In this document: positions 6,312 through 25,918 of the stretch, in pieces
Layout: each line of letters starts with the position of its first letter
Position numbering within the stretch: position 1 is the stretch's first letter
IMG/VR virus record: IMGVR_UViG_3300046096_000140
Span: 1-25,918 of that record
From: a virus
Lineage: Duplodnaviria > Caudoviricetes
DNA length: 25,918 nt
Reading direction: 5' to 3' (one strand)
Position numbers and translations under genes: made by a program
Notes under the pieces: generated by a model
The model's input: only the letters and a program-made list of their open reading frames with translations
What the model was told of the DNA's origin: nothing
Database searches by the model: none

Positions 6312-8156
6312 TTAGTTCAAATCTATCCGACTTGCCTTAACTGAATACTTCCCACCACAAGTGACGCTGGCATTTTTTGAAACGTATGTGTCAAAATTTC
6401 CCTCTACATTCATGTTGGCATTTCCGCCAACAAGAACTTCTGCATTTCCATCAACTTGTATTTTTGTGTTTCCTTGAACAACGATAGTCAAGTTTCCCAT
6501 AACGCTTGTATCTGAGTCTTGAGCAACATGCGTTCGTTGGTTTCCCTCAATGATGGCGTTTGTGTCATATGCGGAAATCTGATTGATGTCCTTTTTTGAC
6601 TTCACAACAAATGTGCCATTTGGATGAACTTCAATGAATGAACCTGATGCATGATAAACGTGCAATCTCTCATATCCCGGAGTGTCATCGAGTTCAACAA
6701 CATGTCCAGAAATGGTTTCCGTTACCTTATTGAATGGATACTTCGTGTTGTATTGTGTTTGTGGTTCAGATATTGTTGCCTTACCAGCACTTTTTCCTGT
6801 TGTTAGAGACCTACGCTTCTTTTCAATGGCTGTATCACTAATGATACCACGAGCAAGTCTGGATACATCAACTTCATTATGCCTTCGTGGGAACTCTCCG
6901 TTCGGATCAACGAACCCTCTGATTGGGTTATTTGCCGAAGGAGCAACAGAAATTTTCTTCTCAGTTACAATCTGCTTCGTGTCCTCTTTGAACTCAACCT
7001 TTTTCTCCTCTTTCAGCACAACTGGTTGACAAACTCCATTTTCATAGGTTCTTGTAATGGCAATAAGTTGTGTTTTTTCTTCGTTGAATCTACGAATCAA
7101 CCCCGGCCAGAGTTTTGGCGAAGATTTGAAATTAACTTCAACATTTTGTATACGATAGTCGTACAAAATTTCAATGACTTTTGAATCACAAACATTTGGT
7201 TCTGGGTTACCAACAGCACTCTTTATGATTGATGCTGCTCCTCCCGGACCATGTTGAACTGACATTGACCAAATTGCTTCATGGATAGCTTTTTTCCTGT
7301 TTGTTATGCTTGGAGGAAGTTTGTCTACACAAACCTGATAGTATTGTCGTTCAATGTATTTGTGTTGGTCAGCAAGAAAATCAACCCTATTTGAACTCCC
7401 TAAACTTCTCCACATTGAATCGAATGCTTGAGTTGCTGGAGACAGCCCGCCAAATTTATCAGAATAAACTGATGCTTTAAGATACTGATTGACTGGAGAA
7501 TTTATGATCTGTGCTTTTTTAACACTGTCTCTTGTTGGGGTATCTGGTCCCTTCAGGTATGAAGCAAACTGATATGCTCCATATGAAGCTCCACCCAAGT
7601 CAGCACCGTTTGAATATGCATTAACTGTTCCTGGGTTTCCATTGGATTCATGTTTTGCCGAAACCGAACCAAGTTTTGACGGAATAACCCTTCCCGGATC
7701 GTTTGAATTTTCTTCAACAATTGGAGTTGGGGTTTCAGTTGGAGGTGTTGGTGGAGAAGTTGTTACTGGAGTCCCATCGCTTGTTGAGATCGGATTTCCT
7801 GAACTATCTCTAACGACGTTTTGGTCATCAACAGAACTTTCGCTGAATATCAACTCTTCACCAACAGCATCCTTCACCTCTTTAACTGGGTTTCCATGAA
7901 TTGAACCAATAACTACTGGGTATTGATTATCGTTGTCCAAAAATTCAACAGCAACCCATGCTCCCTGAACAATTCCAGTTGGCGATATTCCAATACCAGA
8001 TACACTACCCGATTGAATAGGACACAGACACATTGCCCACGGCAAACTTGAGATTGGGACAAGACTTGTATCGTCTGTGTGAATGCCGAAAATTCGGACA
8101 CGAACTCGACCTGCTTTTAGTGGGTCGTTAATATCTTCAATTACACCAAATTTCAT
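6312..8156 (-). CDS. gp5: Baseplate central spike/tail lysozyme gp5
   Basis: N-terminal OB-fold (GVIEDINDPLKAGRVRVRIFG.H, LPWA), central muramidase-like domain, YPFNKVTET.SGH..E.DDTPG.ER, beta-helix repeats, C-terminal SRIDLN. Confidence 0.95.
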   Translation of the reverse strand: MKFGVIEDINDPLKAGRVRVRIFGIHTDDTSLVPISSLPWAMCLCPIQSGSVSGIGISPTGIVQGAWVAVEFLDNDNQYPVVIGSIHGNPVKEVKDAVGEELIFSESSVDDQNVVRDSSGNPISTSDGTPVTTSPPTPPTETPTPIVEENSNDPGRVIPSKLGSVSAKHESNGNPGTVNAYSNGADLGGASYGAYQFASYLKGPDTPTRDSVKKAQIINSPVNQYLKASVYSDKFGGLSPATQAFDSMWRSLGSSNRVDFLADQHKYIERQYYQVCVDKLPPSITNRKKAIHEAIWSMSVQHGPGGAASIIKSAVGNPEPNVCDSKVIEILYDYRIQNVEVNFKSSPKLWPGLIRRFNEEKTQLIAITRTYENGVCQPVVLKEEKKVEFKEDTKQIVTEKKISVAPSANNPIRGFVDPNGEFPRRHNEVDVSRLARGIISDTAIEKKRRSLTTGKSAGKATISEPQTQYNTKYPFNKVTETISGHVVELDDTPGYERLHVYHASGSFIEVHPNGTFVVKSKKDINQISAYDTNAIIEGNQRTHVAQDSDTSVMGNLTIVVQGNTKIQVDGNAEVLVGGNANMNVEGNFDTYVSKNASVTCGGKYSVKASRIDLN

Positions 8157-8158
8157 TT

Positions 8159-8932
8159 TTAACCAATCGTGCAGTGATGAACTCGGAATGTTCCCTTGGG
8201 GGTTACCATCCGTTCTTCTTTACTTGGATCAATATTTATGACAATGTTTCGAGGAAGAATGATTTCCCTTTCTCCTTCATGGTCATCGCCGCGAACGTAT
8301 GCACATGGATGTCCCTTTGGAACATGGATTTTCATGATGTCACCATGTTCTGGATGCTTTGATGCAAAATCATTGGCTGCTCTAATCGACAAACTTGTTG
8401 ACGTAAATGCGGGATGATGAACGCTATTAGAAGCCTCTAAGACAGCCGCATGTTCCTTAGACGTGCCTGACCATACAACCATGTCCATCGGTGCCTTGTG
8501 GCTCGATATAACGTCATCCAGAGGCATCCTATCGACCTTCTTTCCGTCAATAAGGTCTTTATTGATTGACGAATCCTTGACATACGCATGAATGACTTTT
8601 TGTTCCTTACTCGTATAGTCTGGAAACTTTGAATCAACAGCATCAATTGCCTTGCGAAGTCCAATCTGAAACGCTTTCCTTGCCGAAGACTGAACTTGAT
8701 CTGCTCTGTCTGGATGAACACGAGAAATTCGACCATCGGGCATGGCAACTGCATACATCTCTGGGTCGGTTGGATGATTTATTAGAGTGTCACCAACAAA
8801 ATCTTTTGGTGATGGAGCATGCTCCTTTGGGCCAAGATAGTTAAAGTATTGTGGAGTCTCAAACGACTCATTGACATCACCAACCCTGTCAATATCAGAA
8901 AAGCTCTTTGGAATCGAAGGATGGATTCTCAT
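8159..8932 (-). CDS. ADP-ribosyltransferase (Alt/VIP2-like, R-S-E clade)
   Basis: VVWSG (usual YRG position), FTSTS, EGEREIILPRN (ExE catalytic motif). Confidence 0.8.
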   Translation of the reverse strand: MRIHPSIPKSFSDIDRVGDVNESFETPQYFNYLGPKEHAPSPKDFVGDTLINHPTDPEMYAVAMPDGRISRVHPDRADQVQSSARKAFQIGLRKAIDAVDSKFPDYTSKEQKVIHAYVKDSSINKDLIDGKKVDRMPLDDVISSHKAPMDMVVWSGTSKEHAAVLEASNSVHHPAFTSTSLSIRAANDFASKHPEHGDIMKIHVPKGHPCAYVRGDDHEGEREIILPRNIVINIDPSKEERMVTPKGTFRVHHCTIG

Positions 8933-13776: not shown

Positions 13777-15021
13777 ATGCCAACAATCCTTAAAGCTTAT
13801 AAGTACCGAGTCTATCCGACTCAAGTACAAGCTGAGTTCCTTGATAGGAACTTTGGAGCAGTGCGTTTTCTATGGAATCAATTTGTTTCATCGTTTAATA
13901 GCTATAACGTCGGTCCAGTCATACCGGAGAACGAGAAAATCCTGAAAGATAGGAATCTCTGGATGCATGACGTTATCTCGTATGCTCTCCAGCAAAAGAG
14001 GATGGACTGGTTTGAATTCAAGAAACAGTTCTTCAATAAGAAACGAAAAGTCAAGTTAGGTAGACCGTCATACAAGAAACGCAATGTTTCTAATGATTCT
14101 TTCCGGTTACCCGGAGCATGCATCGGATTCAATGCTGGAGTGAATTTCGCCAAAGGAACAATAAAGCTTCCTAAAATGACTCCGTTGAAAGTCGTTTATG
14201 ATCGACGTTTCTCGGGTCAACTTCGTTCAGTAACACTTTCAAAGAACAAATGCAATCAATATTTCGTTTCAATACTCGTTGAAACTGAAACTGAAACTGA
14301 AACTGAAACTGAAGTAAAACAAAATACTGGTCGCTCAATCGGTATTGATCTTGGTCTAAAGCATCTTTGTATCCTTTCAAACGGCATGAAGATTGATAAT
14401 CCAAGATGGTTTCGTAAAACTCAAACGAAACTCAAAAGAGCGCAGCAGCATCTTTCAAGGAAGACTAAAGGGTCTAACCGTAGAGAAAAACAACGATTGA
14501 AAGTAGCAAAGCTACATCAAAAAGTTGCAAATCAACGAAAAGACTTTCAGCATAACTTTTCGACATGGTTAGTAAACAACTATGATACAATCATTACTGA
14601 GGACTTAAACGTCAAAGGTATGGTCAAAAATCGTAAGTTGGCTAAGTCGATTAGTGATGCAAGTTGGTCAAGCATGGTCTCTATGATTTCTTATAAGTCA
14701 AACTGGTACGGTAGGTCATTTCATAAGATTGATCGTTGGTGTCCATCAAGTAAGACTTGTTCTCATTGCGGTCATAAAGAAAACAACATGGGATTGCAAA
14801 TTCGTGACTGGAAATGCCCAAGTTGTGGAACTGAACATGATCGTGACTTAAATGCTGCTTTAAACATACTCCATAAAGGTCTTGACGATCTTTATGGGGT
14901 TTCATCGGAAGAATTATCCGATTACAGACGTGGAGAAGGATTAAGACCCGAGGCGCTTGCGCCGAAGGCACCTTCATTGAACCGTCTAGTCAGTTTTATC
15001 GAATTTGATAGAACGACGTAA
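13777..15021 (+). CDS. tnpB: RNA-guided endonuclease TnpB (IS200/IS605 family), no adjacent tnpA
   Basis: KAYKYRVYPT..Q HTH, RuvC-I GIDLGLK, RuvC-II ITEDLNV, zinc finger SSKTCSHCG...CPSCG, RuvC-III HDRDLNAALNI. Confidence 0.96.
   Translation: MPTILKAYKYRVYPTQVQAEFLDRNFGAVRFLWNQFVSSFNSYNVGPVIPENEKILKDRNLWMHDVISYALQQKRMDWFEFKKQFFNKKRKVKLGRPSYKKRNVSNDSFRLPGACIGFNAGVNFAKGTIKLPKMTPLKVVYDRRFSGQLRSVTLSKNKCNQYFVSILVETETETETETEVKQNTGRSIGIDLGLKHLCILSNGMKIDNPRWFRKTQTKLKRAQQHLSRKTKGSNRREKQRLKVAKLHQKVANQRKDFQHNFSTWLVNNYDTIITEDLNVKGMVKNRKLAKSISDASWSSMVSMISYKSNWYGRSFHKIDRWCPSSKTCSHCGHKENNMGLQIRDWKCPSCGTEHDRDLNAALNILHKGLDDLYGVSSEELSDYRRGEGLRPEALAPKAPSLNRLVSFIEFDRTT
14281..14313 (+). repeat. (GAAACT)5 microsatellite in tnpB encoding ETETETETETE
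   Basis: Seen directly in sequence. Confidence 0.95.
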
Positions 15022-15273: not shown

Positions 15274-15431
15274 TTTTGTCTGTTATTGCTATTTGGTTTA
15301 TTGCCTCTGGGGTATGGTTCTATCAAAACAGAGGCAATAACTCCAGAAAAGACAAAAAGACTGATTGGATTTTCATCCCGCCAATTCTTTTAGTTGCCTT
15401 TGTTATTTCTCTGTTTAAGTTTCCGCAATGA
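15267..15431 (+). CDS. Small membrane protein (54 aa, two hydrophobic segments)
   Basis: Manual translation MLILSVIAIWFIASGVWFYQ...WIFIPPILLVAFVISLFKFPQ; ATGA overlap with 15428. Confidence 0.65.
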   Translation: MLILSVIAIWFIASGVWFYQNRGNNSRKDKKTDWIFIPPILLVAFVISLFKFPQ

Positions 15432-15610
15432 AGACTTCTGAACTACCAAAGGTCGGTCATGCCGGTTGGGCAAGATTTAAAGTCATGGGAGAGGGTGTGG
15501 TTATTGGGCAGAAACACTACTTCCGAGCCACTTTCTTTGGAATAATGGATCATTTCGTTGATTCAAACCACACAGTTTCGACAGAGATCGAATCCAATGA
15601 GAATTTCTGA
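15428..15610 (+). CDS. SDLP-family small protein 1 (MKTSELPK)
   Basis: Shared N-terminal motif; stop lies inside the next motif. Confidence 0.7.
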   Translation: MKTSELPKVGHAGWARFKVMGEGVVIGQKHYFRATFFGIMDHFVDSNHTVSTEIESNENF

Positions 15611-15761
15611 CCTTCCAAAGATTCACGAACATCATAGTATACTGCTGTTGTTCATTCAATGGTGGTGGCCTTATCCGTTACCACCGGGAGAGTGTGCTGT
15701 GACGAAAGCAGGTATCAATGAGTCAACTGTGAACTTGGTGAAAATCAATGAAGACATCTGA
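15597..15761 (+). CDS. SDLP-family small protein 2 (MRISDLPK)
   Basis: Start re-assigned to the motif ATG at 15597. Confidence 0.7.
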   Translation: MRISDLPKIHEHHSILLLFIQWWWPYPLPPGECAVTKAGINESTVNLVKINEDI

Positions 15762-15933
15762 TCTACCATTAATATCGCCGTATGACGGAATACAGGCATT
15801 TCCTACTTCTTGTCAATGGGTAGTTGTTTTCCCAATTGATTGGAAGAAAGTGAATACAATTTTCCATTCACTTCACAGTCTTCAAAAACCATTCTACCAA
15901 TTTGTACCACTTGGACGTTATGCAGACCTCTGA
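15748..15933 (+). CDS. SDLP-family small protein 3 (MKTSDLPL)
   Basis: Shared N-terminal motif. Confidence 0.7.
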   Translation: MKTSDLPLISPYDGIQAFPTSCQWVVVFPIDWKKVNTIFHSLHSLQKPFYQFVPLGRYADL

Positions 15934-16081
15934 ATTACCTCGACGGAAAGCCGGTTTTGATTGGGGATTTGACACACCTCACATGAAGGTTATGTTGACC
16001 ATCCAAATCGAATACATCTTTGAATTACACGATATGCAAAACAACATCAGGTTAACCCTGAGACAAATCAAATGCGAGTGA
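15920..16081 (+). CDS. SDLP-family small protein 4 (MQTSELPR, 53 aa)
   Basis: Manual translation; not in the ORF track. Confidence 0.7.
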   Translation: MQTSELPRRKAGFDWGFDTPHMKVMLTIQIEYIFELHDMQNNIRLTLRQIKCE

Positions 16082-16236
16082 ATGATCTACCAAGAATCGG
16101 TAGTCGATGGATCAAACCGTTTCAATTGGTTTTTCGTGTTGGTAGACCAACAGCGACAGTCTACTTCATGCGAGAATGTAGCAAAATGTATGCTGTAATC
16201 CATGAATCTCTAAAGAACGTCAAATATGAAAGTTAA
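16072..16236 (+). CDS. SDLP-family small protein 5 (MRVNDLPR, 54 aa)
   Basis: Manual translation; not in the ORF track. Confidence 0.7.
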   Translation: MRVNDLPRIGSRWIKPFQLVFRVGRPTATVYFMRECSKMYAVIHESLKNVKYES

Positions 16237-16771
16237 AATCTCAAACTACACCACTTGGTATGGCCCATACCAGATAGCAGGAATACTATTGTTCTGGATG
16301 GACAAAGAAGATGACCGGGTTCACAAGTTTGGTGAATGGCTATCCGAGACATTTCTCAATGACTTCTGTGAGTGGGTGCATTCTAAGAAGAAGCGAAAGA
16401 TTGATGTTCAGATTGATAACTTCGATACGTGGAACATGGATCATACTCTGGCGCATATCATCCTTCCGATGCTGAAGACAATCAAGGAGCAGAAGCAGGA
16501 TAGTCCATATACCGATGATAGTGATACACCAATCTGGCTCCACTCTACTCTACTCCCTGCAGAGGACGACTATCACACCGATGGACATTTCCATGCGCGG
16601 TGGGTATGGATTCTCGATGAGATGATCTGGACATTTGAACAGATTGTTTGTGACGATGAAGAAACGGAGATGATTCTGGCGGGTGATTGGAATAAACGAG
16701 ACCTCCATGAGAAACGAATCTCCAATGGTCTGAGGTTGTTTGGAAAATACTACCGGAGTTTGTGGACTTAA
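16226..16771 (+). CDS. Conserved phage hypothetical protein
   Basis: V.ID..DTWNMDHTLA.II.PML..W.WILDEMIW.F...G.RLFGKYY..LW pattern recalled from T4-like phages. Confidence 0.8.
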   Translation: MKVKISNYTTWYGPYQIAGILLFWMDKEDDRVHKFGEWLSETFLNDFCEWVHSKKKRKIDVQIDNFDTWNMDHTLAHIILPMLKTIKEQKQDSPYTDDSDTPIWLHSTLLPAEDDYHTDGHFHARWVWILDEMIWTFEQIVCDDEETEMILAGDWNKRDLHEKRISNGLRLFGKYYRSLWT

Positions 16772-16828
16772 TTGACTACAGTTGATTTTCTGTGATACAA
16801 TAGAACCATCAACAGGAACTACATCATG
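16772..16828 (+). promoter_or_regulatory. Repeated early promoter+RBS cassette, copy 1
   Basis: TTGACTACAGTTGATTTTCTGTGATACAATAGAACCATC...AGGAACTACATCATG. Confidence 0.9.
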
Positions 16829-17056
16829 AAAATCCACAAGACTGTAGTCACGATTACCGTCAAAAACTCCATTGACGATACGTATCGTCTCGAAGAAGGC
16901 AACATTGAAGTGTGGTATGATCGTTCTGCTGGCGTCTGGATTGCTGCTGTGTTCAATTCCATCGGTGACCAGATTGGAGATGCAGAGTTTGCTGGGTCAA
17001 GGATACGGGCGTTCAACTCAATTGCCCGTTATCGTGACGACATCCGAGTCATCTGA
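16826..17056 (+). CDS. Hypothetical protein
   Basis: Starts at the cassette ATG with an AGGA RBS. Confidence 0.8.
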   Translation: MKIHKTVVTITVKNSIDDTYRLEEGNIEVWYDRSAGVWIAAVFNSIGDQIGDAEFAGSRIRAFNSIARYRDDIRVI

Positions 17057-17070
17057 AAGGAACATACATA

Positions 17071-17403
17071 ATGAACAAAACAATCAAAGTTAAAGTTAAG
17101 CATCAAGGTGATGCCGTTGTTGGCGAAGAAGGATACATGGCTATCCGTGGCGAAAACGTCGTTGCTTTCTATTTGGATGGATGGGGTAAAACTGGTCGTG
17201 CATACTGCGAAGCATCTTCTTGTTCGTTGATGATCAACGGTATACAAAAAATGTATCCATCAATGCTGATCTCTGATGGCGATGATGAATCTGCTTGGTC
17301 TGAAATCTACTTCCCTGAATTTGAAGGATGGGACGTTCATTCTGTCAATGGTGGCAAGACCATGAGTGTTTGCTTGATTAAACCTGAATCTTTCAAGGAG
17401 TAA
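17071..17403 (+). CDS. Hypothetical protein
   Basis: AAGGAA RBS; 110 aa. Confidence 0.8.
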   Translation: MNKTIKVKVKHQGDAVVGEEGYMAIRGENVVAFYLDGWGKTGRAYCEASSCSLMINGIQKMYPSMLISDGDDESAWSEIYFPEFEGWDVHSVNGGKTMSVCLIKPESFKE

Positions 17404-17406
17404 ATT

Positions 17407-17874
17407 TTGGCAGCAATTGAAAAAATTTGTGAATTCTTAGGTGAGTATGCATCCACAGAGATGTACCGATACAAGCGCAATCATATCCAAGTGATGCCGA
17501 AGTTCCGCAAAGAATTCCGGGGCAAAGATCATGTGTTGCACATCTTCAAACCTGAAGTTCGGATTGAAACAAAAGGTAAGTCGATCATCTGGATTATGGG
17601 TGAAAATTACTTCCATCCGTATGACGAAAATGACTATCAAACATATCAGGCATACGTTCAGGGAGAGCTTGCCCACTGGCGAGGTAAACTTGTCAATGAA
17701 TATGAGTTTGCATTGGAAGTTCCTGATCTTCCCGGCGAAGTTGGGGGCATCTACATGAACGAGACTTACAACTTACGACAAACTATCAAGCGGCTGAAAC
17801 GCATGTTGCGTTGCCGTGAAGTCATCATCAAGAAACACAACTGCTCTTACTGGGAATGGAGACAATCTAAATGA
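17407..17874 (+). CDS. Hypothetical protein
   Basis: AAGGAG RBS, TTG start, 155 aa. Confidence 0.75.
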   Translation: MAAIEKICEFLGEYASTEMYRYKRNHIQVMPKFRKEFRGKDHVLHIFKPEVRIETKGKSIIWIMGENYFHPYDENDYQTYQAYVQGELAHWRGKLVNEYEFALEVPDLPGEVGGIYMNETYNLRQTIKRLKRMLRCREVIIKKHNCSYWEWRQSK

Positions 17875-18125
17875 GTGGCGGTCACTTTGACTACAATCAG
17901 TATCAGATTCAAGACATCATTGAGAAGCTTGAATCCCATTTGAATGGGACTGAACCGTTCTATGAAGATTACAGTCAAGAAACTCTGGATGAGTTCAATA
18001 AAGGCTTGGATATTCTCAAGAAAGCCTATGTTTATAGCCAGAGGATTGACTGGTTGTTGAGTGCCGATGACGGGGAATCAACTTTTCACCGGCGACTAAA
18101 TGAAGAATTAGATGCACTTGAGTGA
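17871..18125 (+). CDS. Conserved phage hypothetical protein (MSGGHFDY family)
   Basis: MSGGHFDYNQY...AYVY.QRIDWLLS.DDGE..F..RL pattern; GGAG RBS. Confidence 0.8.
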   Translation: MSGGHFDYNQYQIQDIIEKLESHLNGTEPFYEDYSQETLDEFNKGLDILKKAYVYSQRIDWLLSADDGESTFHRRLNEELDALE

Positions 18126-18318
18126 TTTGCCATCAACAAAATCTGATGGAAGCACAACCTGCTTCCGTGTGGTGTTTCTTCCATCTACAATTGCAAAAAG
18201 ACCAAGCGATTATCAAGTGAAATCTGTCTGGACGTCATTGACTCACAAGTATTTCCACTTGAGCGAACCAATTTTGAATTCTGTTGGAAAAGTTTTGACT
18301 ACAGTTCAGCTTCTGTGA
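18112..18318 (+). CDS. SDLP-family small protein 6 (MHLSDLPS)
   Basis: Shared motif; ends at a TGA inside the next promoter cassette. Confidence 0.65.
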   Translation: MHLSDLPSTKSDGSTTCFRVVFLPSTIAKRPSDYQVKSVWTSLTHKYFHLSEPILNSVGKVLTTVQLL

Positions 18319-18362
18319 TACAATAGAACCATCGAAACAAACCACAAGGAACCTTTATCATG
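18295..18362 (+). promoter_or_regulatory. Repeated early promoter+RBS cassette, copy 2
   Basis: TTGACT-N18-TACAATAGAACCATCGAAACAAACCACAAGGAA...ATG. Confidence 0.9.
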
Positions 18363-18692
18363 ATTAAAGAATTCAACGGCAAGAAATACATTTTCATTTC
18401 GCATGACATTAAAGTCTCTTATGCGTGTCCTAAATGTGTAGCATGGAATAAAACTGATCTCTGCAACGCCCTCAGTGATGATTGCGATGACGGCTACTTT
18501 TCTGAAGCCGATGACCGAACACCAGAAGTCACGGACAACCAAGAACAAATGACTCTCCGCGATCAGTTTGCAATGGCTACAATCAACGGTCTGGTTGCAA
18601 GTAAAACTTATTCAACAGAGCATGGTGCGGAATTTGCAGCCAGAACAGCATATGCATTTGCTGATGCGATGATGAAAGAACGTGCAAAATGA
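18360..18692 (+). CDS. Hypothetical protein: Cys-rich N-terminus fused to a common phage 'MTLRD.FA...AY..ADAM...R' domain
   Basis: Motifs seen in translation. Confidence 0.8.
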   Translation: MIKEFNGKKYIFISHDIKVSYACPKCVAWNKTDLCNALSDDCDDGYFSEADDRTPEVTDNQEQMTLRDQFAMATINGLVASKTYSTEHGAEFAARTAYAFADAMMKERAK

Positions 18693-18931
18693 TTCCAATC
18701 TGTAATCTCTGGGTCAATCCAGAAACCCACAACTATGAAGTTGACCGTTGCGATCATCCAATATCGGAGTTGATTCCTGTTGTAAAGCAACAGGCTCCGC
18801 TAACCCATGATCAGATTGAAGCCATTGGGAAACTGATTCTTGATCACGGGTTTCACGAATGGGAAGGACTGCAACCTTGGGTATATACCTTCGTCAAAGC
18901 AGTTGAAACTGCACACGGAATTACAAAATGA
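18689..18931 (+). CDS. Hypothetical protein
   Basis: ATGA overlap; C-terminal PLT.DQI...F..AVE.AHGI pattern common in phages. Confidence 0.75.
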   Translation: MIPICNLWVNPETHNYEVDRCDHPISELIPVVKQQAPLTHDQIEAIGKLILDHGFHEWEGLQPWVYTFVKAVETAHGITK

Positions 18932-19077
18932 CCGTTTTCAAGTATTTTTCAGTGCGTCGAAATAGAACCAATTGCATCATCCGATGGACTCGTTTTAACT
19001 TGGCTGAATTTGACAACATTGATGCTGGATACTGTCTCGATAATGAAGCAGTTTGTTTTGCAGGGGAGATGAAATGA
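18928..19077 (+). CDS. Hypothetical protein (49 aa, MTVFKYFSVRR)
   Basis: Manual translation; ATGA overlaps at both ends. Confidence 0.65.
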   Translation: MTVFKYFSVRRNRTNCIIRWTRFNLAEFDNIDAGYCLDNEAVCFAGEMK

Positions 19078-19250
19078 CAACATGGGTTCTTTTCTTCTGG
19101 TTCACTTCTGGCTCTCAGATGGAGACTGGAACAATCCAGAATCTAAAATCGCTTGATGAATGCAATAGAGTTGCAATTGTCATCAATGATACGATGCCAA
19201 GACATCCTCGTGTTCCCTGTCATCGTTGCATTGAGGTCTATACGAAATGA
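19074..19250 (+). CDS. Hypothetical protein (MTTWVLFFWF...)
   Basis: GGAG RBS and ATGA overlaps; start re-assigned to 19074. Confidence 0.7.
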   Translation: MTTWVLFFWFTSGSQMETGTIQNLKSLDECNRVAIVINDTMPRHPRVPCHRCIEVYTK

Positions 19251-19654
19251 CAAACTTCGACCACATTTACATGCAGATGGCGAGGGAGATTGCTACAGCA
19301 TCCAAGGCAAAGCGAAAGAAAGTTGGGTCAATCCTTGTCACAAACAATGGAGTCTTGTTGCCCGGATACAATGGCACTCCCGCTGGATGGTCTAATGCAT
19401 GCGAAGATTCAAATGACGTCACTCTACCAACGGTGATTCATGCGGAACTTAATTGTATACTGAAGGCTGCAAAAGAGGGCGTCAGTGTCATTGATTCGAC
19501 AATCTATGTAACACTATCGCCGTGCCTTGCTTGTTCCGCAATGCTTGCTCAAGCTGGAGTAAAACGGATCGTGTATGACGAGGAATATCGAGACCTTAGT
19601 GGTGTGAATCTGTTGCTTCAGAAAGACATCTTAGTTGAGCGTCTATGCGAGTGA
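19247..19654 (+). CDS. cd: dCMP deaminase
   Basis: GYNGTP.G..N.CE, HAE.N, TLSPC..C zinc-deaminase motifs. Confidence 0.95.
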   Translation: MTNFDHIYMQMAREIATASKAKRKKVGSILVTNNGVLLPGYNGTPAGWSNACEDSNDVTLPTVIHAELNCILKAAKEGVSVIDSTIYVTLSPCLACSAMLAQAGVKRIVYDEEYRDLSGVNLLLQKDILVERLCE

Positions 19655-19845
19655 GTGACCTTCCATGTATCCAATTCATTGATCGGCTCGATGTAATGTC
19701 AACAAGGTGGAACATTTCAGCGCCTTCACTAGGCAGACCCATTAGACGCACAAACTTAAACTTGACTTTAGACAAGTTTTGGTCAATTCAGATAGTCTTT
19801 AACTATTTGACTACAATTCGTTTCCTTGATACAATAGAACAATGA
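19645..19845 (+). CDS. SDLP-family small protein 7 (MRVSDLPC)
   Basis: Shared motif; contains the dCMP deaminase stop codon. Confidence 0.65.
   Translation: MRVSDLPCIQFIDRLDVMSTRWNISAPSLGRPIRRTNLNLTLDKFWSIQIVFNYLTTIRFLDTIEQ
19807..19844 (+). promoter_or_regulatory. Truncated promoter cassette, copy 3 (leaderless)
   Basis: TTGACT-N17-TACAAT-AGAACA-ATG. Confidence 0.8.
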
Positions 19846-20162
19846 AACAATATAAACAAATCCACATCGCCTTCCCTGACATTGACTTTCAGAGAGCCAT
19901 TCGCATGACATTTACTGCTTTGGTTGAAAACGACGAGTTTCTGTGTGCAGCCCCAAATAATCAAAAAGAAGCCATCGTTATTTTGGCTGCTGCTTTTGCC
20001 AAAGCCAACTACTTGCTTAGGTGGGACAAAGAACCACGGGATCACAGTGATTACATTCGGTCAAAACTTTATGTTGGTTGCACACCACACCCTCTGGATT
20101 GGGATGTTCAGTATTACTACGATACAGCATCAAAAGAAGTCTACTCTGGAACATGTAATTGA
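19842..20162 (+). CDS. Hypothetical protein
   Basis: 106 aa ORF between two cassettes. Confidence 0.75.
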   Translation: MKQYKQIHIAFPDIDFQRAIRMTFTALVENDEFLCAAPNNQKEAIVILAAAFAKANYLLRWDKEPRDHSDYIRSKLYVGCTPHPLDWDVQYYYDTASKEVYSGTCN

Positions 20163-20224
20163 CTACAGTTGAGTTTTCGTGATACAATAGAACCATCGAA
20201 ACAAACCAAGGAAACTTTATTATG
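20159..20224 (+). promoter_or_regulatory. Repeated early promoter+RBS cassette, copy 4
   Basis: TTGACTACAGTTGAGTTTTCGTGATACAATAGAACCATCGAAACAAACCAAGGAAACTTTATTATG. Confidence 0.92.
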
Positions 20225-20590
20225 GCAAACTACAAAATCGGTGATCGTGTTGAATACATTGTTAATGGTGTTGTCTATGACACCGGAACTGTTACTCGTG
20301 TAGAAAACTGGGATGCTGGCCAGTGGTGGGCTAGGTGGGATTCTGATTCAATGGAGAATACTTTCGATGAGACTGACGATGCTTTTCGCAAAGTCGTAGC
20401 AACTACTGAATGGTTTGAGAATACTTCAACAAGAAACATTCGTCCGAAATTCATGTTTGAATTTCTGATGTCAGATGGAACTGTTCGTCAAGGTGGAATT
20501 AACGAAGTTCCGGGAATTGACTGGAACACCAACAAAGAAGATGACGGATACCCTCACGTTGTCAAGTATCGACTGATCAGCACCATTTAA
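20222..20590 (+). CDS. Hypothetical protein with SH3/KOW-like N-terminal domain (paralog of 21189-21458)
   Basis: YKIGDRVEYIVNGVVYDTGTV...WWARWD. Confidence 0.8.
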   Translation: MANYKIGDRVEYIVNGVVYDTGTVTRVENWDAGQWWARWDSDSMENTFDETDDAFRKVVATTEWFENTSTRNIRPKFMFEFLMSDGTVRQGGINEVPGIDWNTNKEDDGYPHVVKYRLISTI

Positions 20591-20608
20591 CTAAAAGGAA
20601 ACTACATC

Positions 20609-20962
20609 ATGGAACTCGCATTTTTCGTTTATCTCGCCGGTCTTGTTGGGAAAATATCATTCGCTTTGTTCATCATATTGTTCCTTTACGGAGTTGGTGT
20701 TTTTGGATACACGGTATACGTCACCGCCGATAACACCGATAGTTACCGCAAGAAAATCCCATACCAGAAACGATGGGCAATTGGATGGCTTTGTTTAGCA
20801 ATGTTGTCTGCTTTCATTCCATCGGAAAAGACTATGTGGCTAATTTTGGGTGCGTATGGCACACAAAAAGCAGTGCAGTCAGAGATTGGTGCTGATATCA
20901 TTGAAATCATCAACCTGAAGATCAAGAAAGAACTCGAAGCAATGAAAGGCGAAAAGAAATGA
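20609..20962 (+). CDS. Membrane protein
   Basis: Hydrophobic segments; FIPS.KT...I pattern; RBS AAGGAAACTACATCATG. Confidence 0.8.
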   Translation: MELAFFVYLAGLVGKISFALFIILFLYGVGVFGYTVYVTADNTDSYRKKIPYQKRWAIGWLCLAMLSAFIPSEKTMWLILGAYGTQKAVQSEIGADIIEIINLKIKKELEAMKGEKK

Positions 20963-21180
20963 TTACTGTCAATATGTCCAACAAGTTTCTGAAGCTGAAT
21001 CATCGGAAGCAGAAAAAGAAAATCAACTTGATGTTGCGAACCTTGATTCATAATGCCTTGATGTATGCAGGGGTTGATTCAGTTCCACTTGTTCGTGACA
21101 CCAAGAGGAGTTTCGTGCAATTTGCAACAGCAGACATTTCTGGTAAACGGGTAACATTCACATTCTGTGACGAGATTTAA
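20959..21180 (+). CDS. Hypothetical protein
   Basis: ATGA overlap, 73 aa. Confidence 0.6.
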   Translation: MITVNMSNKFLKLNHRKQKKKINLMLRTLIHNALMYAGVDSVPLVRDTKRSFVQFATADISGKRVTFTFCDEI

Positions 21181-21188
21181 GGAATCAT

Positions 21189-21458
21189 ATGTCGAAATTT
21201 AAAGTTGGTGACCGTGTTCAATATGTCGTTGATGGTGTTGTCTCTGATACAGGGACGGTTGTTCGACGATATAATGAAAATGAAACTTCTTGGTGGGCTA
21301 TGTGGGACGGAACGAATAGAGAACAGCACTTCAATGATGACAACGATAATTTCCGTCGCATCCCTCATACACTTGAAGAAACCGTTGCCATGCTGACGAA
21401 ATCTTTGGATGAAGTCAAGGCAACTCTACAACAACTGATTGCAAAACAATCATTATGA
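21189..21458 (+). CDS. Hypothetical protein, SH3/KOW-like domain plus coiled coil (paralog of 20222-20590)
   Basis: FKVGDRVQYVVDGVVSDTGTV...WWAMWD; AAGGA RBS. Confidence 0.8.
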   Translation: MSKFKVGDRVQYVVDGVVSDTGTVVRRYNENETSWWAMWDGTNREQHFNDDNDNFRRIPHTLEETVAMLTKSLDEVKATLQQLIAKQSL

Positions 21459-22558
21459 TTAAAATCAACCATAAAATACCAACTCTATCTGAGTGTCGTC
21501 AGATAGCAGCACAGAAACCAGAGTTCCGTGAGATCAAAAAAGACGGATATGTTGTTTTTGATTATGCCATCAATGACAGTCACACATTCGATAATCCAAG
21601 TTCATTGGAGATGCGTGGCATTGCATTCAATGAACTTGGCGTTGTTGTTTCTCTTGGGCTTCATAAGTTTTTTAACTATGGAGAAAAACAAAATCAGAGC
21701 ATCGTTTTGGATGGAACCGAAGAAGTTCTGGAAAAACTTGATGGGTCAATGATTCGAGTCATCCAAAAGGGAGACTCATGGGTATTTGGGACTCGGGCAG
21801 GAGAAACTGATTACTCGGTTATGACTCATCGTTGGCTTGATTCACAACAAGACGATGTTCGGAACGGATATGTCGAATTTATTGAGATGTGTTTGAGTCA
21901 GAGTTTTTTCCCAGTCTTTGAGTTTTGGTCTCCTGAAAATTCAGTTGTTATTAACTACGACAAACCTTTCTTGAAACTGTTGGCTATTCGGGACTACAAC
22001 GGCGATTATGTCACCTATGAAACCATGCGGTATGTTTCTGGAATATATGGTATTGGGATGGCCTCCAAACAGAGTTTTGGGTTTGATGAAGCCATTAAAA
22101 CATATTCTTCCATGACTGGCATTGAGGGATTCATTATCCGAAATCAAGGTGACTGGGTGAAAATCAAAACCGAAGAATACTGTATGATTCATCGGGCAGT
22201 TGATGGAATCAAATTTGATAAAGATGTGTGCTTGGCAGTTTTGGACGGTTTGATTGATGACATCATTCCAAAGTTGGTTGAACCTCGAAAGTCACAAGTG
22301 ATTGCATTGAGTGATTCTATTGTTGCAGCAATGCAACGAATTTCAACTGAAGTGAAGGCACACTTTGAAGTTTTAATGAACCTCTGTGATGATCGCAAGA
22401 CCTTTGCGATTGCTATTCTTGATAACAAATTCAAGTCAGAACTGTTTGCATTGGCAGATGGAAAAGATGTTGACGTTGTTATTCAGAAGCGTTTCCGAAC
22501 TGCTGCTGGAGGTATCCACACTTGGGCTGCATTTTACAAAGAATTTGTTGAAACTTAA
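21455..22558 (+). CDS. rnlA: RNA ligase 1 (T4 RnlA/gp63-like)
   Basis: E.RG..F, HKFFNYGE, motif I EKLDGS, FE..SP.N..V..Y, EGFII, VKIK..EY...H. Confidence 0.92.
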   Translation: MIKINHKIPTLSECRQIAAQKPEFREIKKDGYVVFDYAINDSHTFDNPSSLEMRGIAFNELGVVVSLGLHKFFNYGEKQNQSIVLDGTEEVLEKLDGSMIRVIQKGDSWVFGTRAGETDYSVMTHRWLDSQQDDVRNGYVEFIEMCLSQSFFPVFEFWSPENSVVINYDKPFLKLLAIRDYNGDYVTYETMRYVSGIYGIGMASKQSFGFDEAIKTYSSMTGIEGFIIRNQGDWVKIKTEEYCMIHRAVDGIKFDKDVCLAVLDGLIDDIIPKLVEPRKSQVIALSDSIVAAMQRISTEVKAHFEVLMNLCDDRKTFAIAILDNKFKSELFALADGKDVDVVIQKRFRTAAGGIHTWAAFYKEFVET

Positions 22559-22566
22559 CAGTTCCC

Positions 22567-22631
22567 TTTACCTTTCTTGGTTGATGTGATACAATTCAGT
22601 CATCAACCAAGAAAGGTTTTTCCACATCATG
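22567..22631 (+). promoter_or_regulatory. Promoter inside a perfect 17 bp inverted repeat (promoter stem-loop)
   Basis: TTTACC-N17-TACAAT; arms 22570-22586 and 22601-22617 flank the -10 box. Confidence 0.8.
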
Positions 22632-22991
22632 TCTTCCATCCGAATCAACCTCAAACAGTTTCTTGTCAATAGCAGCGATGGTGTTGACTTCTTCAATCGC
22701 CCACAGACCTATGGTAACTTCCGTATGGCTGTTGCTGGTGCGTCACTGAATTGCTATCAGAACAAGACTCGTATCGTCTACACGAAAGAGAAACGTCGTG
22801 CCAAACGGATCGTCGCGCCACAGTTGACTGCCTCTGGTAAACCAAGCAAGAAACCTCCAGTTGTTCAGAACATTCCGGGTCATGTTCGGTGGAAAATCTA
22901 TGCAATCCCAAACGTGATCGTAAAGATGATCGAAACGCAAGGTCAGAAAATCGTTCAACATAAAAACCATTTTTCAATTGAAAGCAAATGA
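22629..22991 (+). CDS. Basic hypothetical protein
   Basis: 120 aa, K/R-rich, follows the promoter. Confidence 0.75.
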   Translation: MSSIRINLKQFLVNSSDGVDFFNRPQTYGNFRMAVAGASLNCYQNKTRIVYTKEKRRAKRIVAPQLTASGKPSKKPPVVQNIPGHVRWKIYAIPNVIVKMIETQGQKIVQHKNHFSIESK

Positions 22992-23281
22992 TGCACAATG
23001 ACACAATCACAATCGACGGAGTTCAATATCTCCGGGCAGGAACCATCAAAGTCAATGATGAATTCCGCAACATCGTTGAAGCCGTTGGTTTTGACTTGGA
23101 TCGTTTGATTAGAGACGCCAAAGAAATTCAAGCTGACTATGCTCAACAGGGACTGACCCACAATTCCTTGGAGAACGAGGGATACTTGCGCGGCCTGCTT
23201 ACTGTAAAGGGTTCCTTTGACTATCACGTCAAGTCGTATCAACTGGAAGAAACATCTGAGCATGTTGGTGTTTGCTGCTGA
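22988..23281 (+). CDS. Hypothetical protein
   Basis: ATGA overlap; ITIDGVQY.R N-terminal motif common in phages. Confidence 0.75.
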   Translation: MMHNDTITIDGVQYLRAGTIKVNDEFRNIVEAVGFDLDRLIRDAKEIQADYAQQGLTHNSLENEGYLRGLLTVKGSFDYHVKSYQLEETSEHVGVCC

Positions 23282-23373
23282 AACAACTGGTAGCTATCTG
23301 TGGCTACTTGTTGGTATGATCGAATGCTTCATTTCCCCTATTGAGGGGATTGATGACGAAGAAATTTAAAATC

Positions 23374-23565
23374 GTGCAAATCTCTGACCTCCCAAAGAAA
23401 CATGAACGCTTGGTATATTGTCTCGATAGGGTGGCTGGCGACACATTACTCAACGTGCATGCAGAATGCATGTGTCACAATCTGCAAACATTCAAGTATG
23501 TTATTGGTGTTGCTTCTGGAATTTACAAACAGCATGCACCCATGATGAAAAATGAAAATCTCTGA
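23374..23565 (+). CDS. SDLP-family small protein 8 (GTG start, MQISDLPK)
   Basis: Shared motif; start re-assigned to GTG 23374. Confidence 0.65.
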   Translation: MQISDLPKKHERLVYCLDRVAGDTLLNVHAECMCHNLQTFKYVIGVASGIYKQHAPMMKNENL

Positions 23566-23719
23566 CCTACCGAAGCCACCAACTAAAATCGACTACCGAA
23601 GGACAACTTTGTTTTACGTTGTGGCTCGGGTCCACAACTTGTGGACATTGATTCCGAGGTATGGGTACGTTTCAACTTTGTTTCCAAGATGGGTGCTGGT
23701 TCTAAATGAATACCTCTGA
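23552..23719 (+). CDS. SDLP-family small protein 9 (MKISDLPK, 55 aa)
   Basis: Manual translation. Confidence 0.7.
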   Translation: MKISDLPKPPTKIDYRRTTLFYVVARVHNLWTLIPRYGYVSTLFPRWVLVLNEYL

Positions 23720-23924
23720 TCTACCATCAATGAAAACCAAGTGTGGAGTCGTTGTGGATGACTACGACTTTGAAACTCATTACTGGGCGGTTAGTGCTGT
23801 CGTCACAAAAACGGAGCTTAGTCTGAACACAGATGATCTTTATGTTGAATTTTCACCAATCGTTGATGTAATTGCCGAAATGGGATGGGCACTGGGATGG
23901 GCACTGAGTGAAGAACTATGCTGA
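23706..23924 (+). CDS. SDLP-family small protein 10 (MNTSDLPS)
   Basis: Shared motif. Confidence 0.7.
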   Translation: MNTSDLPSMKTKCGVVVDDYDFETHYWAVSAVVTKTELSLNTDDLYVEFSPIVDVIAEMGWALGWALSEELC

Positions 23925-24097
23925 TACTTGACTTACCAAAGCTGAATCCAACTTACCCATCCTATGATTATGTGTGGGACGTATCACAATTCATTACTTG
24001 TGATTTTCTTCATTATCAAGGTATTCTCCGAAATTTTGTTCATCTTCACCGAGACATTCAAGGCGTTCTACCAATTGAGGATGACGAACTATGGTGA
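23918..24097 (+). CDS. SDLP-family small protein 11 (MLILDLPK, 59 aa)
   Basis: Manual translation. Confidence 0.65.
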   Translation: MLILDLPKLNPTYPSYDYVWDVSQFITCDFLHYQGILRNFVHLHRDIQGVLPIEDDELW

Positions 24098-24252
24098 TAG
24101 GCGAACTACCGAAACTTGAAAAGATTAGTGACTGCTACGAGGAAATTCTTCACTACGACACATACAATCGGTTACGACCAGAAGTTGTTAGCAAGACTCG
24201 ACCAATCGTGCAAATACTTGGAAAAATTCTGGTGGATTTTGACTGCAGTTGA
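24091..24252 (+). CDS. SDLP-family small protein 12 (MVIGELPK, 53 aa)
   Basis: Manual translation; ends inside the next promoter cassette. Confidence 0.6.
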   Translation: MVIGELPKLEKISDCYEEILHYDTYNRLRPEVVSKTRPIVQILGKILVDFDCS

Positions 24253-24304
24253 TTTTCTGTGATACAATAGAACCATCGAAACAAACCAAGGAAACTTTAT
24301 CATG
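24239..24304 (+). promoter_or_regulatory. Repeated early promoter+RBS cassette, copy 5
   Basis: TTGACTGCAGTTGATTTTCTGTGATACAATAGAACCATCGAAACAAACCAAGGAAACTTTATCATG. Confidence 0.92.
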
Positions 24305-24679
24305 AAAACAGTCAAAGTATCCGAAGCCACAGGCCCAGTCCTCAACTGGCTGGTGGCGAAAGCCAACGACGAAAAAGACATCCTGTATGCACAGCACCAA
24401 TATGGGCGTTTGGTTATTCGGACAGCAGGTGATCATGAAACATGCGACAGTGAATGGTCCTATGCTCCGTCAACCGACTGGGCACAAGGTGGCCCACTGA
24501 TCGAGCGAGAGGAACTGCATCTACGCAAGTCAGGTTGCGAGTGGCGGTGTGACTATTGGAACGATTCGACACTGAATTTTGATACCAGTTACGGCGACAC
24601 ACCACTCATAGCAGCCATGCGCTGCTACGTAGCAAGCAAACTCGGTGACGTCGTTGATGTTCCAGATGAATTGATTTGA
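24302..24679 (+). CDS. NinX/DUF2591-like phage protein
   Basis: L.W.VAKA...PSTDWAQGGPLIERE...G.TPLIAAMRCYVASKLGD.V.VP. Confidence 0.8.
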   Translation: MKTVKVSEATGPVLNWLVAKANDEKDILYAQHQYGRLVIRTAGDHETCDSEWSYAPSTDWAQGGPLIEREELHLRKSGCEWRCDYWNDSTLNFDTSYGDTPLIAAMRCYVASKLGDVVDVPDELI

Positions 24680-24740
24680 CTACAGTTGAGTTTTCGTGAT
24701 ACAATAGAACCATCGAAACAAACCAAGGAACTACATCATG
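24676..24740 (+). promoter_or_regulatory. Repeated early promoter+RBS cassette, copy 6
   Basis: TTGACTACAGTTGAGTTTTCGTGATACAATAGAACCATCGAAACAAACCAAGGAACTACATCATG. Confidence 0.92.
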
Positions 24741-25184
24741 TCAATCGGCAAATACTCCCCAACCGTATCTCGTGCATACGTAGTCAACCAAAACTGGTTC
24801 AAAGAAGTCTATGATGACAATGGTTGGGTCACCAGCTATGATGCCCAAGGCTATGATCGGTATGGATATGATAAAGATGACGTTGACCGTGCCGGTAACA
24901 ATGAATATGCATATGCATATTCAGAGAATGAAGGTCTCTATGAAGACGTTCAATCCGAGTGGGGATATGACGGCAACACACCAGTTTGTCTTGTGAAGAA
25001 AGTCACTCCAGTTCAAACCACAATGGTGACTATTGAAATCGACACGTTGCGTCAGATTCTCAATACACTTCGTGAAGTCACTACGACTTTCTTGGATGTT
25101 GATGGACAATTTGGTAAGTGTGAACAGGATACAATCGAAAAAGTTTATGCAGCTATTGCGTTGATTCCATCTGAAGTGAAATGA
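24738..25184 (+). CDS. Hypothetical protein with (G)YDxx repeats
   Basis: YDDNG..SYDAQGYDRYGYDKDDVDRAG. Confidence 0.8.
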   Translation: MSIGKYSPTVSRAYVVNQNWFKEVYDDNGWVTSYDAQGYDRYGYDKDDVDRAGNNEYAYAYSENEGLYEDVQSEWGYDGNTPVCLVKKVTPVQTTMVTIEIDTLRQILNTLREVTTTFLDVDGQFGKCEQDTIEKVYAAIALIPSEVK

Positions 25185-25206
25185 ATACGCCCTTGGTGGC
25201 AGAAAA

Positions 25207-25377
25207 ATGAAAATCTCTGACCTGAGACACCTTAAACTTCGTCGAAATGGTGCTATAGTCTCGGTTATTGGATTTCCCGTTACTCGTTCTATGGCGCATG
25301 CATACGCTTATATGGCGAATTTTCTACCAAACGACAAAATAAACTTGGTAAGATTGACTACAGATCAGATTCTGTGA
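25207..25377 (+). CDS. SDLP-family small protein 13 (MKISDLRH, 56 aa)
   Basis: Manual translation; DNA ATGAAAATCTCTGACCT identical to member 9; ends in the cassette TGA. Confidence 0.65.
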   Translation: MKISDLRHLKLRRNGAIVSVIGFPVTRSMAHAYAYMANFLPNDKINLVRLTTDQIL

Positions 25378-25419
25378 TACAATAGAACCATCGAAACAAA
25401 CCAAGGAACATTTATCATG
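25354..25419 (+). promoter_or_regulatory. Repeated early promoter+RBS cassette, copy 7
   Basis: TTGACTACAGATCAGATTCTGTGATACAATAGAACCATCGAAACAAACCAAGGAACATTTATCATG. Confidence 0.92.
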
Positions 25420-25788
25420 AAACACCCACACGCCGAATTGATGAAAGCCTATGCCGACGATTGCACTCTGAAATTTCAAATCAAAGAGCATTGGGGTTGG
25501 TCTGACTGCAATTCACCGCGATTCTTTAAAAATGTTGAATACCGAATCAAACCAGAAGAAGTGAAAATGATTCGTGTTGGTCGCCATGAATGGGAAGAAC
25601 CATTGAAAGAATTTCCTACCGTTGGAACGGTTTGGACATTCTCTTTTGAGCATCACTCTTTACAAGAAATTGTCGATCCGTGGTTCATTAGAAAGGCGAT
25701 AAGCGAAGGCACAGCCCATCGAACCAAAGAAGCTGCACGACAGCACCGAGAAGCTATGCAATGCATCAACCGTGGAGACATTGAATGA
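25417..25788 (+). CDS. Hypothetical phage protein
   Basis: HPHAELM..YA.D...W.....P.F....EYRIKP pattern common in phages. Confidence 0.8.
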   Translation: MKHPHAELMKAYADDCTLKFQIKEHWGWSDCNSPRFFKNVEYRIKPEEVKMIRVGRHEWEEPLKEFPTVGTVWTFSFEHHSLQEIVDPWFIRKAISEGTAHRTKEAARQHREAMQCINRGDIE

Positions 25789-25918
25789 CCTACCCAAAGA
25801 TCAAAGCATACAACTCTTACTACATCACAATTGGGGATTCTCTTGACGATGTTATTGAGTCACTAAGTTCTATTAAGAATGACATGACCGAAAGGGGCAT
25901 TACTACCGTAAAGATTGA
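25785..25918 (+). CDS. Hypothetical protein (partial, MTYPKIKAYNSYY...)
   Basis: ATGA overlap; open to the window end. Confidence 0.6.
   Translation, partial: MTYPKIKAYNSYYITIGDSLDDVIESLSSIKNDMTERGITTVKI

Follow-up and report, generated by a model that had tools for sequence, protein, structure and literature searches.

Overlapping putative micro-genes with a common start motif in an uncultured freshwater T4-like phage

The Locus and Its Micro-Genes

We analyzed the entire 25.9-kb virus record IMGVR_UViG_3300046096_000140 (Duplodnaviria; Caudoviricetes; positions 1–25,918, hereafter the window), whose right half contains 13 short genes, here called micro-genes, that start with a common motif built around the residues D/E-L-P and continue into divergent tails. 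T4-type core genes occupy the left half (gp59, gp33, gp46, gp47, gp55, gp5, baseplate, and head-closure genes), and the right half consists of small orphan genes together with a dCMP deaminase and an RNA ligase. An initial annotation, made from the letters alone, had listed the 13 open reading frames (ORFs) of 53–72 amino acids (aa); their coordinates, N-termini, and lengths were all confirmed, and the start-to-start periods of the two arrays (169/151/172/152 and 178/154/212/173 bp) follow from the confirmed starts.

All micro-genes lie on the plus strand. Array A consists of micro-genes 1 (15428..15610, 60 aa), 2 (15597..15761, 54 aa), 3 (15748..15933, 61 aa), 4 (15920..16081, 53 aa), and 5 (16072..16236, 54 aa); the first overlaps an upstream 54-aa ORF by 4 nucleotides (nt), the next three have 14-nt overlaps, and the fifth a 10-nt overlap. 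Two members are single: micro-gene 6 (18112..18318, 68 aa), which overlaps an unrelated 84-aa gene by 14 nt, and micro-gene 7 (19645..19845, 66 aa), which overlaps the dCMP deaminase gene by 10 nt. Array B opens with micro-gene 8 (23374..23565, 63 aa), which has a GTG start and does not overlap its upstream gene, and continues with micro-genes 9 (23552..23719, 55 aa) and 10 (23706..23924, 72 aa), both with 14-nt overlaps, and 11 (23918..24097, 59 aa) and 12 (24091..24252, 53 aa), both with 7-nt overlaps. Micro-gene 13 (25207..25377, 56 aa) has a degenerate motif, D-L-R, and no overlap with the gene upstream.

Several results speak for coding genes, as had been suggested, and against a DNA or RNA repeat. 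The pattern [MV]xxx[DE]LP occurs 12 times in the window, compared to a mean of 0.42 and a maximum of 2 in 100 dinucleotide shuffles; all 12 matches are on the plus strand, from 15428 to 24091, and the 13th member (25207) is the one with D-L-R. Of 331 off-frame ATG or GTG starts in the region, 22 reach 53 codons, and the other two frames of the tails contain 34 stops each in 592 codons. For 50 of 68 members across the family, a codon model trained on other genes favors the frame of the motif; members score lower than neighboring genes, which belonged to the training set. Tail substitution patterns also differ between the motif frame and shifted frames (see below), and stops or frameshifts in orthologs, which if frequent were to have marked the spacers as non-coding, are only occasional.

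An open frame near 25772 was considered as a 14th member and rejected, because it belongs to the beginning of an unrelated gene whose ortholog in the related genome G001 has 93 aa. At 25785–25918, an unrelated gene begins where 16 of 17 bases agree with the motif consensus, one base being extra. Just before array B (23217–23369) lies an apparently truncated gene for a hydrophobic protein of 57–58 aa, which is intact in G001 (107693) and in the comparison sequence L068 (846).

Family Size and Distribution

Scans for the motif and for a promoter repeat described below identified as relatives G001 (129 kb, 73% complete), G002 (34 kb), G003, G005, and three short metagenome contigs. G003 is the window's strain across the six members it covers, and the motif sites of G005 match those of G001. 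Taken together, six contigs hold 75 members: 13 in the window, 32 in G001, 16 in G002, and 14 in the three short metagenome contigs. Isolated short copies of the motif among larger genes, at G001 12967 (34 codons) and G002 16088 (14 codons), are probably remnants.

Pattern matches were mostly unrelated in the metagenomes, where only 3 of 24 hits were true relatives and 21 of the 24 loci were unrelated repeats; one of five viral loci was likewise an unrelated repeat, and 9 of 13 pattern-scan loci were single-copy unrelated proteins. In the unrelated viral contigs L035–L039, L042, L043, L045, and L046, single-copy proteins of 47 to >110 aa begin with M-K-x-S/T-D-L-P-K. With a stricter pattern, all eight loci found lie in four contigs already identified as carriers of the family. 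A phage with a complete 216-kb genome, whose capsid protein is 77% identical, contains one motif match, compared to three for a control pattern; in another four records, which are more distant, there are two to four matches each.

The whole-family profile was too weak for use in searches. A profile of 25 hand-picked members, searched against 1.84 billion representatives, returned 14 proteins, of which 13 are members or close variants and one is a simple repeat. The 13 window members had no match in PHROGs, and 51 members searched against Pfam and PHROGs gave none that was usable (best E-values 0.03–0.04, for single members); PDB sequences, BFVD folds, and the ESM Atlas likewise gave nothing usable for the family. 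The tails therefore do not reduce to one known, diverged domain of Pfam, PHROGs, PDB, or the fold databases, and no known anti-defense or host-takeover family matched among PHROGs and Pfam.

No close isolated phage was found among 50,697 records, the best identities being 37% for gp46 and 36% for the RNA ligase, and tblastn and blastn against isolated phages gave no usable match for the micro-genes. Three sequencing runs contain at least half of the region, all of them freshwater metagenomes, and no RNA run was listed among the holders. Prokaryote genomes searched for the promoter repeat and the tandem motif gave 0 matches, and thus no host clue. As far as these sequence searches reach, the family is found only in an uncultured freshwater T4-like lineage.

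Anatomy of the Start Motif

The N-terminal “tag” had been described as a constant stretch of eight positions (M-x-x-S-D-L-P-K). It is a composite: residues 5–7 (D/E-L-P), and partly 8–9, are conserved as protein, whereas residues 2–4 track the upstream gene, to which their codons mostly belong. Among 38 group representatives, the proportions of synonymous (pS) and nonsynonymous (pN) differences are 0.72 and 0.14 for codons 5–7, vs. 0.56 and 0.54 for codons 2–4; codons 10–14 are saturated. At position 6, 65 of 69 members have leucine and all six leucine codons are used, with 14 TTR and only 1 TTY, which bears out the synonymous variation noted earlier for the Leu and Asp codons.

The initial annotation did not mention that the stop codon of the previous gene sits within the motif at 52 of 69 junctions, so that codons 2–4 double as that gene's last codons. 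The upstream stop ends at +14 in 33 cases, +4 in 10, +10 in five, and +7 in four, and the +14 stop is almost always a TGA spread across codons 4 and 5. Such 14-nt overlaps occur for 6 of the 13 window members, vs. none of 23 neighboring genes in the window. In the G002 ortholog of micro-gene 7, L6-P7 is preserved via compensating single-base shifts, a single hint from one orthologous pair that the distance of L6-P7 from the N-terminus may matter.

Shine-Dalgarno pairing of at least −4 kcal/mol strength was found for 20 of 69 members, compared to 14 of 23 neighbors and 99 of 500 random sites. Because the members are near background, translation by reinitiation is likely, and two papers on reinitiation support it for short overlaps (PMC6728339; PMC10666635). 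Two other mechanisms were rejected. A programmed frameshift into a polyprotein at the motif stop does not agree with overlaps in two frames (+14 vs. +4/+7/+10) and a retained start codon, and a motif hairpin with the upstream Shine-Dalgarno site gave no folding signal (mean z of +0.27).

A Promoter-Like Repeat Frames the Arrays

A cassette consisting of a sigma70-type promoter and a ribosome-binding site is repeated seven times on the plus strand of the window. Four of the five micro-gene groups terminate inside a copy, another feature that had gone unmentioned. Micro-gene 6 takes its final codons and stop from the copy at 18295..18362, as does micro-gene 13 from that at 25354..25419; a short form at 19807..19844 overlaps the end of micro-gene 7, and the copy at 24239..24304 overlaps the end of micro-gene 12. 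The remaining copies are at 16772..16828, 20159..20224, and 24676..24740. Micro-genes share the strand of the repeat and often lie directly before it; array A has no upstream copy within the window. The seven cassettes have folding energies of −2.7 to −11.0 kcal/mol and no hairpin in common. Several joints and loose ends between strains fall at promoter copies, although such repeats can also misplace contig pieces.

Two other paralogous families accompany the repeat. One has a shared N-terminal half of the YKIGDRVEY type and variable ends, and is mostly first behind the promoter (window 20222–20590 and 21189–21458; G002 L033 12533–12952, 11202–11462, and 5087–5269). The other is a family of small proteins with a W-x-(V/I)-N-T-Q-T-like segment, encoded near promoter repeats in G001 (72614, 97424, 97833, and 99198).

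Exchange of Genes at the Motif

The possibility that the arrays were built by recombination at the motif, raised at the outset, is supported by neighbor switches, alignment ends, and alleles from lake samples. Among 27 aligned pairs, both sides are common to 10 and only one side to 17; one of the latter is an indel artifact, and the remaining 16, which represent about ten events, change neighbors at the motif. In pairs with a common tail, identity starts at nt 11–13 (three cases), and in those with a common upstream gene, it stops at nt 20–21. Micro-gene 2 was lost from L068 by a crossover within the motif, micro-gene 3 was swapped for another gene in G001 at the motif, and the tail of micro-gene 12 stands behind a different gene in the comparison sequence L060, with other residues 2–4 and identity from nt 13. 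Micro-gene 4 has an ortholog in L068 that is half-shared with a G001 member, and micro-gene 11 has two related copies in G002, each with a different upstream neighbor.

Alignment ends that fall inside members lie between −5 and +27 in 30 of 71 cases, vs. 21% expected by length, the ends not being independent; many of the remaining ends fall at the promoter repeat. Both allele types also occur within one lake sample, with the ends of alternative alleles at motif positions: loose ends of lake contigs are at 15427, 15439, 15451, and 15761, with one at 15510, and a joint connects 15761 to 16069. Because the crossovers lie inside the motif, the moving unit is offset from the gene.

Tails, Selection, and Decay

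With the motif and the last four residues removed, 82 tail sequences fell into 44 groups, and the 13 window members into 13 different ones. The earlier statement that nothing is similar beyond about eight residues therefore holds for the window's 13. It does not extend to position 9, which is mostly I or L, nor to a helical hydrophobic period that the C-terminal parts have in common: in the second half of the tails, a 3.6-residue period gives an i/i+4 z of 6.1 (38 groups). The common feature of these mostly unalignable tails is the pattern of a C-terminal amphipathic helix. They are also rich in tryptophan, cysteine, and valine, and poor in lysine (0.59 of background). Between-group similarity slightly exceeds that of reversed sequences in pairs scoring at least 35 (40 vs. 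15, of 3235), but not in hhalign matches with E<0.01 (7 vs. 7, with 399 group pairs covered), and leave-group-out profiles pass for 5 of 38 groups, vs. 3 of 38 when reversed. Two AlphaFold models, built on hand-picked shallow alignments, predict a turn at residues 3–5, an uncertain middle, and a C-terminal helix of 27–32 residues, without a compact fold (predicted template modeling scores, pTM, of 0.24 and 0.29). Membrane peptides were considered and rejected, since none of 38 representatives attains a 19-residue hydropathy of 1.6.

Ratios of nonsynonymous to synonymous substitution rates (dN/dS) were calculated from DNA-level alignments after 4 of 16 pairs were dropped as redundant or paralogous. 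For the 12 orthologous pairs, tail dN/dS is 0.60 (0.46–0.78), in contrast to 1.15 and 1.16 in the shifted frames; 14 pairs of neighboring genes give 0.24 (0.20–0.29). The six pairs among IMG/VR contigs have a tail dN/dS of 0.34 (0.23–0.48). Individual values are 0.08 for micro-gene 2 vs. G001, 0.46 (G001) and 0.31 (L068) for micro-gene 5, and 0.24 for micro-gene 6 vs. G002.

Content also differs between relatives. Micro-gene 1 has orthologs in G001 and L068, the L068 copy being frameshifted; micro-gene 6 is absent behind the same 84-aa gene in L068; micro-genes 9 and 10 each have a related G002 member; and no ortholog of micro-gene 8 was found in the grouping of 82 family sequences. Micro-gene 13 is possibly decaying, and its G002 ortholog is frameshifted to 20 codons. 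The micro-genes are under weak, uneven selection and form a birth-and-death family.

Other Features of the Window

A TnpB-like transposase gene (PHROG 506) lies at 13777–15021, just upstream of array A, and includes an (AAACTG)n run coding for ETETETETE. Related elements are found at other locations in G001 (L031 11593–12840, on the opposite strand, directly after array A) and G002 (L034 2489–3709). On the minus strand, residues ~158–367 of the gp5-like baseplate hub (6312–8156) match unnamed large-protein PHROGs rather than the hub family, and a 257-aa ORF between gp5 and a tail gene (8159–8932) has weak matches to Alt-like ADP-ribosyltransferase families.

Discussion

The anatomy can be described with considerable confidence: these are very probably real, overlapping micro-genes of an undescribed family, shuffled at their start motif. 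Our full explanation, to which we assign a probability of roughly 0.55, is that fast-evolving, lineage-specific micro-genes are swapped within a 20-base start motif and likely provide the phage with a renewable stock of peptides for early interaction with the host. The figure is no higher because we infer the function, host interaction via a common handle.

The motif carries the start of its own gene, usually the stop of the previous one, and the conserved D/E-L-P codons. The moving piece begins at D/E-L-P, takes in the tail with its stop, and ends after the start and initial codons of the following gene; an incoming tail thereby joins an existing start codon in frame and acquires an overlapping stop. 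Crossovers would presumably be made by the recombination system of the phage itself; T4 is known to recombine at short homologies (PMC9391042). Overlap would couple translation, as most members have only a weak Shine-Dalgarno site, and the micro-genes are probably transcribed early from the repeated promoter. Placed at a constant distance from the N-terminus, D/E-L-P may provide a common handle, the variable amphipathic C-terminal helix may set the target, and the peptides may act in counter-defense or takeover. In a bolder version, which we consider only tentative, the 20-base motif would be three things in one: a start/stop junction, an in-frame recombination point, and a peptide handle for one phage or host partner. 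The arrays would then be a plug-and-play display library that delivers dozens of unrelated helices to a common machine against host defenses.

Several results weigh against this explanation. The six pairs with the three metagenome contigs have a tail dN/dS of 1.15 (0.78–1.77), which may reflect either decay or diversifying selection; frameshifts affect four copies and an early stop one; and among 74 uncut copies, 6 are shorter than 45 codons. Some copies may therefore be functionless. Crossovers also occur in mid-tail, for example between micro-gene 12 and G002 at nt 60, and any repeated sequence draws recombination passively; the motif may be either kept for this purpose or used passively. 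Selecting members by the motif itself accounts for part of the low pN in codons 5–7, though not for the saturated synonymous change in the same codons. The N-terminal word may be a generic structural start, as unrelated single-copy phage proteins share it. Finally, the coupling papers stress overlaps of 1 and 4 nt, not 14 nt (PMC6728339; PMC10666635).

The tail data, including the structure models, would fit both a handle-linker-helix design and a single eroded domain. In the latter case, which is possible but in our judgment improbable, members would be very old copies of one small domain in which D/E-L-P packs on the C-terminal helix, with the same gene-shuffling anatomy. The common length (50–72 aa in 38 groups), the helical period of the second half, an aromatic-x-V segment followed by a helix in hand-picked alignments, the modest excess of between-group similarity, and chimeric members that connect some groups are all consistent with this. 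The division of 82 sequences into 44 groups argues against it, as do the hhalign and leave-group-out results, which barely differ from or equal those of reversed sequences, and the lack of a compact fold in the two models, shallow as their alignments are.

It is less probable, and rather doubtful, that the motif is a new capsid-targeting sequence and that the peptides, as is the case for the T-even internal proteins, travel inside the phage head and are injected together with the DNA. A short constant N-terminus on diverse bodies is a design already present in a T4-like phage (PMC3012670), and in T4 the 10 N-terminal residues are enough for targeting, which survives blocked processing (PMC9026906); a missing cleavage site therefore does not exclude capsid targeting. 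Against it, an L/I-x-E site ending at residues 8–12 was found in 3 of 38 groups, compared to 2.5 by chance, and the tails are lysine-poor, with net charges of −12 to +6. Three longer ORFs of the relatives, at L027 16169 (+), L027 11556 (−), and L033 16519 (−), do have L/A-x-E leaders, which are unlike the motif. From T4 biology, we take these leaders to be candidate head-protein targeting propeptides.

Slightly less probable still, and in our view unlikely, is that the units are mostly neutral or selfish cassettes, copied and re-inserted via the motif, with frames kept open only to relay translation. The dN/dS near 1 in the metagenome-contig pairs, the broken copies, and the rapid turnover would be expected of such cassettes; a dN/dS of 0.34 among IMG/VR pairs and of 0.08–0.24 for two genes would not, nor would the saturated synonymous change in D/E-L-P or the helical pattern, and many members are last before a new promoter, with nothing to relay to. 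A DNA or RNA repeat with non-coding spacers (CRISPR-like, regulatory, or a recombinase site), already disfavored above, is very improbable: the repeat-spacer look, regular period, and crossovers at the repeat would suit it, but variation follows codon wobble, the tails have a third-position excess, there is no Rfam match, and starts show no local RNA structure.

Several known systems invite comparison. The statement that no T4-like system has this architecture has to be withdrawn. The T-even internal proteins (IPI, IPII, and IPIII) likewise come from T4-like phage and combine a short constant N-terminal peptide with diverse small proteins; they are described as highly diverse defense proteins with only the N-terminal capsid-targeting sequence in common (PMC3012670), and IPI and IPIII as countering host defenses (PMC3012670; PMC9026906; PMC9391042). 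The micro-genes differ in lacking the L/I-x-E site, in having a different motif, in overlapping one another with the previous stop inside the motif, and in number (32 copies in a 73%-complete genome). We do not file them as internal proteins because the cleavage-site search found no enrichment and there is no sequence relation; by analogy, their peptides may work similarly.

The PeSL cassettes in the hyperplastic, variable regions of the T4-like phages RB49 and phi1 are also short repeats at which small orphan genes are shuffled, and their counterpart in the window is the promoter repeat. PeSLs are intergenic and combine a promoter with a stem-loop (PMC2839356), whereas the window's promoter repeat has no consistent stem-loop and a second shuffling repeat is coding, inside the gene starts. 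Jumbo phages G and 121Q show a comparably large expansion of small genes of unknown function, with more than 30 in tandem; these are described as very similar tandem duplicates in one array (PMC5646251), unlike the mostly unalignable tails and the many short arrays and singletons found here. Termination-reinitiation coupling is alike in its overlapping stop and start and its weak or variable Shine-Dalgarno dependence. The commonest overlaps described for it are 1 and 4 nt (PMC6728339; PMC10666635), while the prevailing overlap in the present family is 14 nt (33 of 69), which recombination carries along. We found no description of the motif, or of a coding motif that serves as both junction and crossover point, in a literature search that left subscription papers largely outside.

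Most phage counter-defense genes are small orphans, and how they arise and turn over is poorly understood. The present family provides a concrete route, in which a coding motif allows genes to be added, lost, and reordered without a break in frame or loss of a start. Should the conserved peptide prove to be a handle, the partner that binds it would constitute a new hub, either in phage-host conflict or in head packaging, and the 44 groups of tails already form a panel that could be screened against bacterial defense systems.

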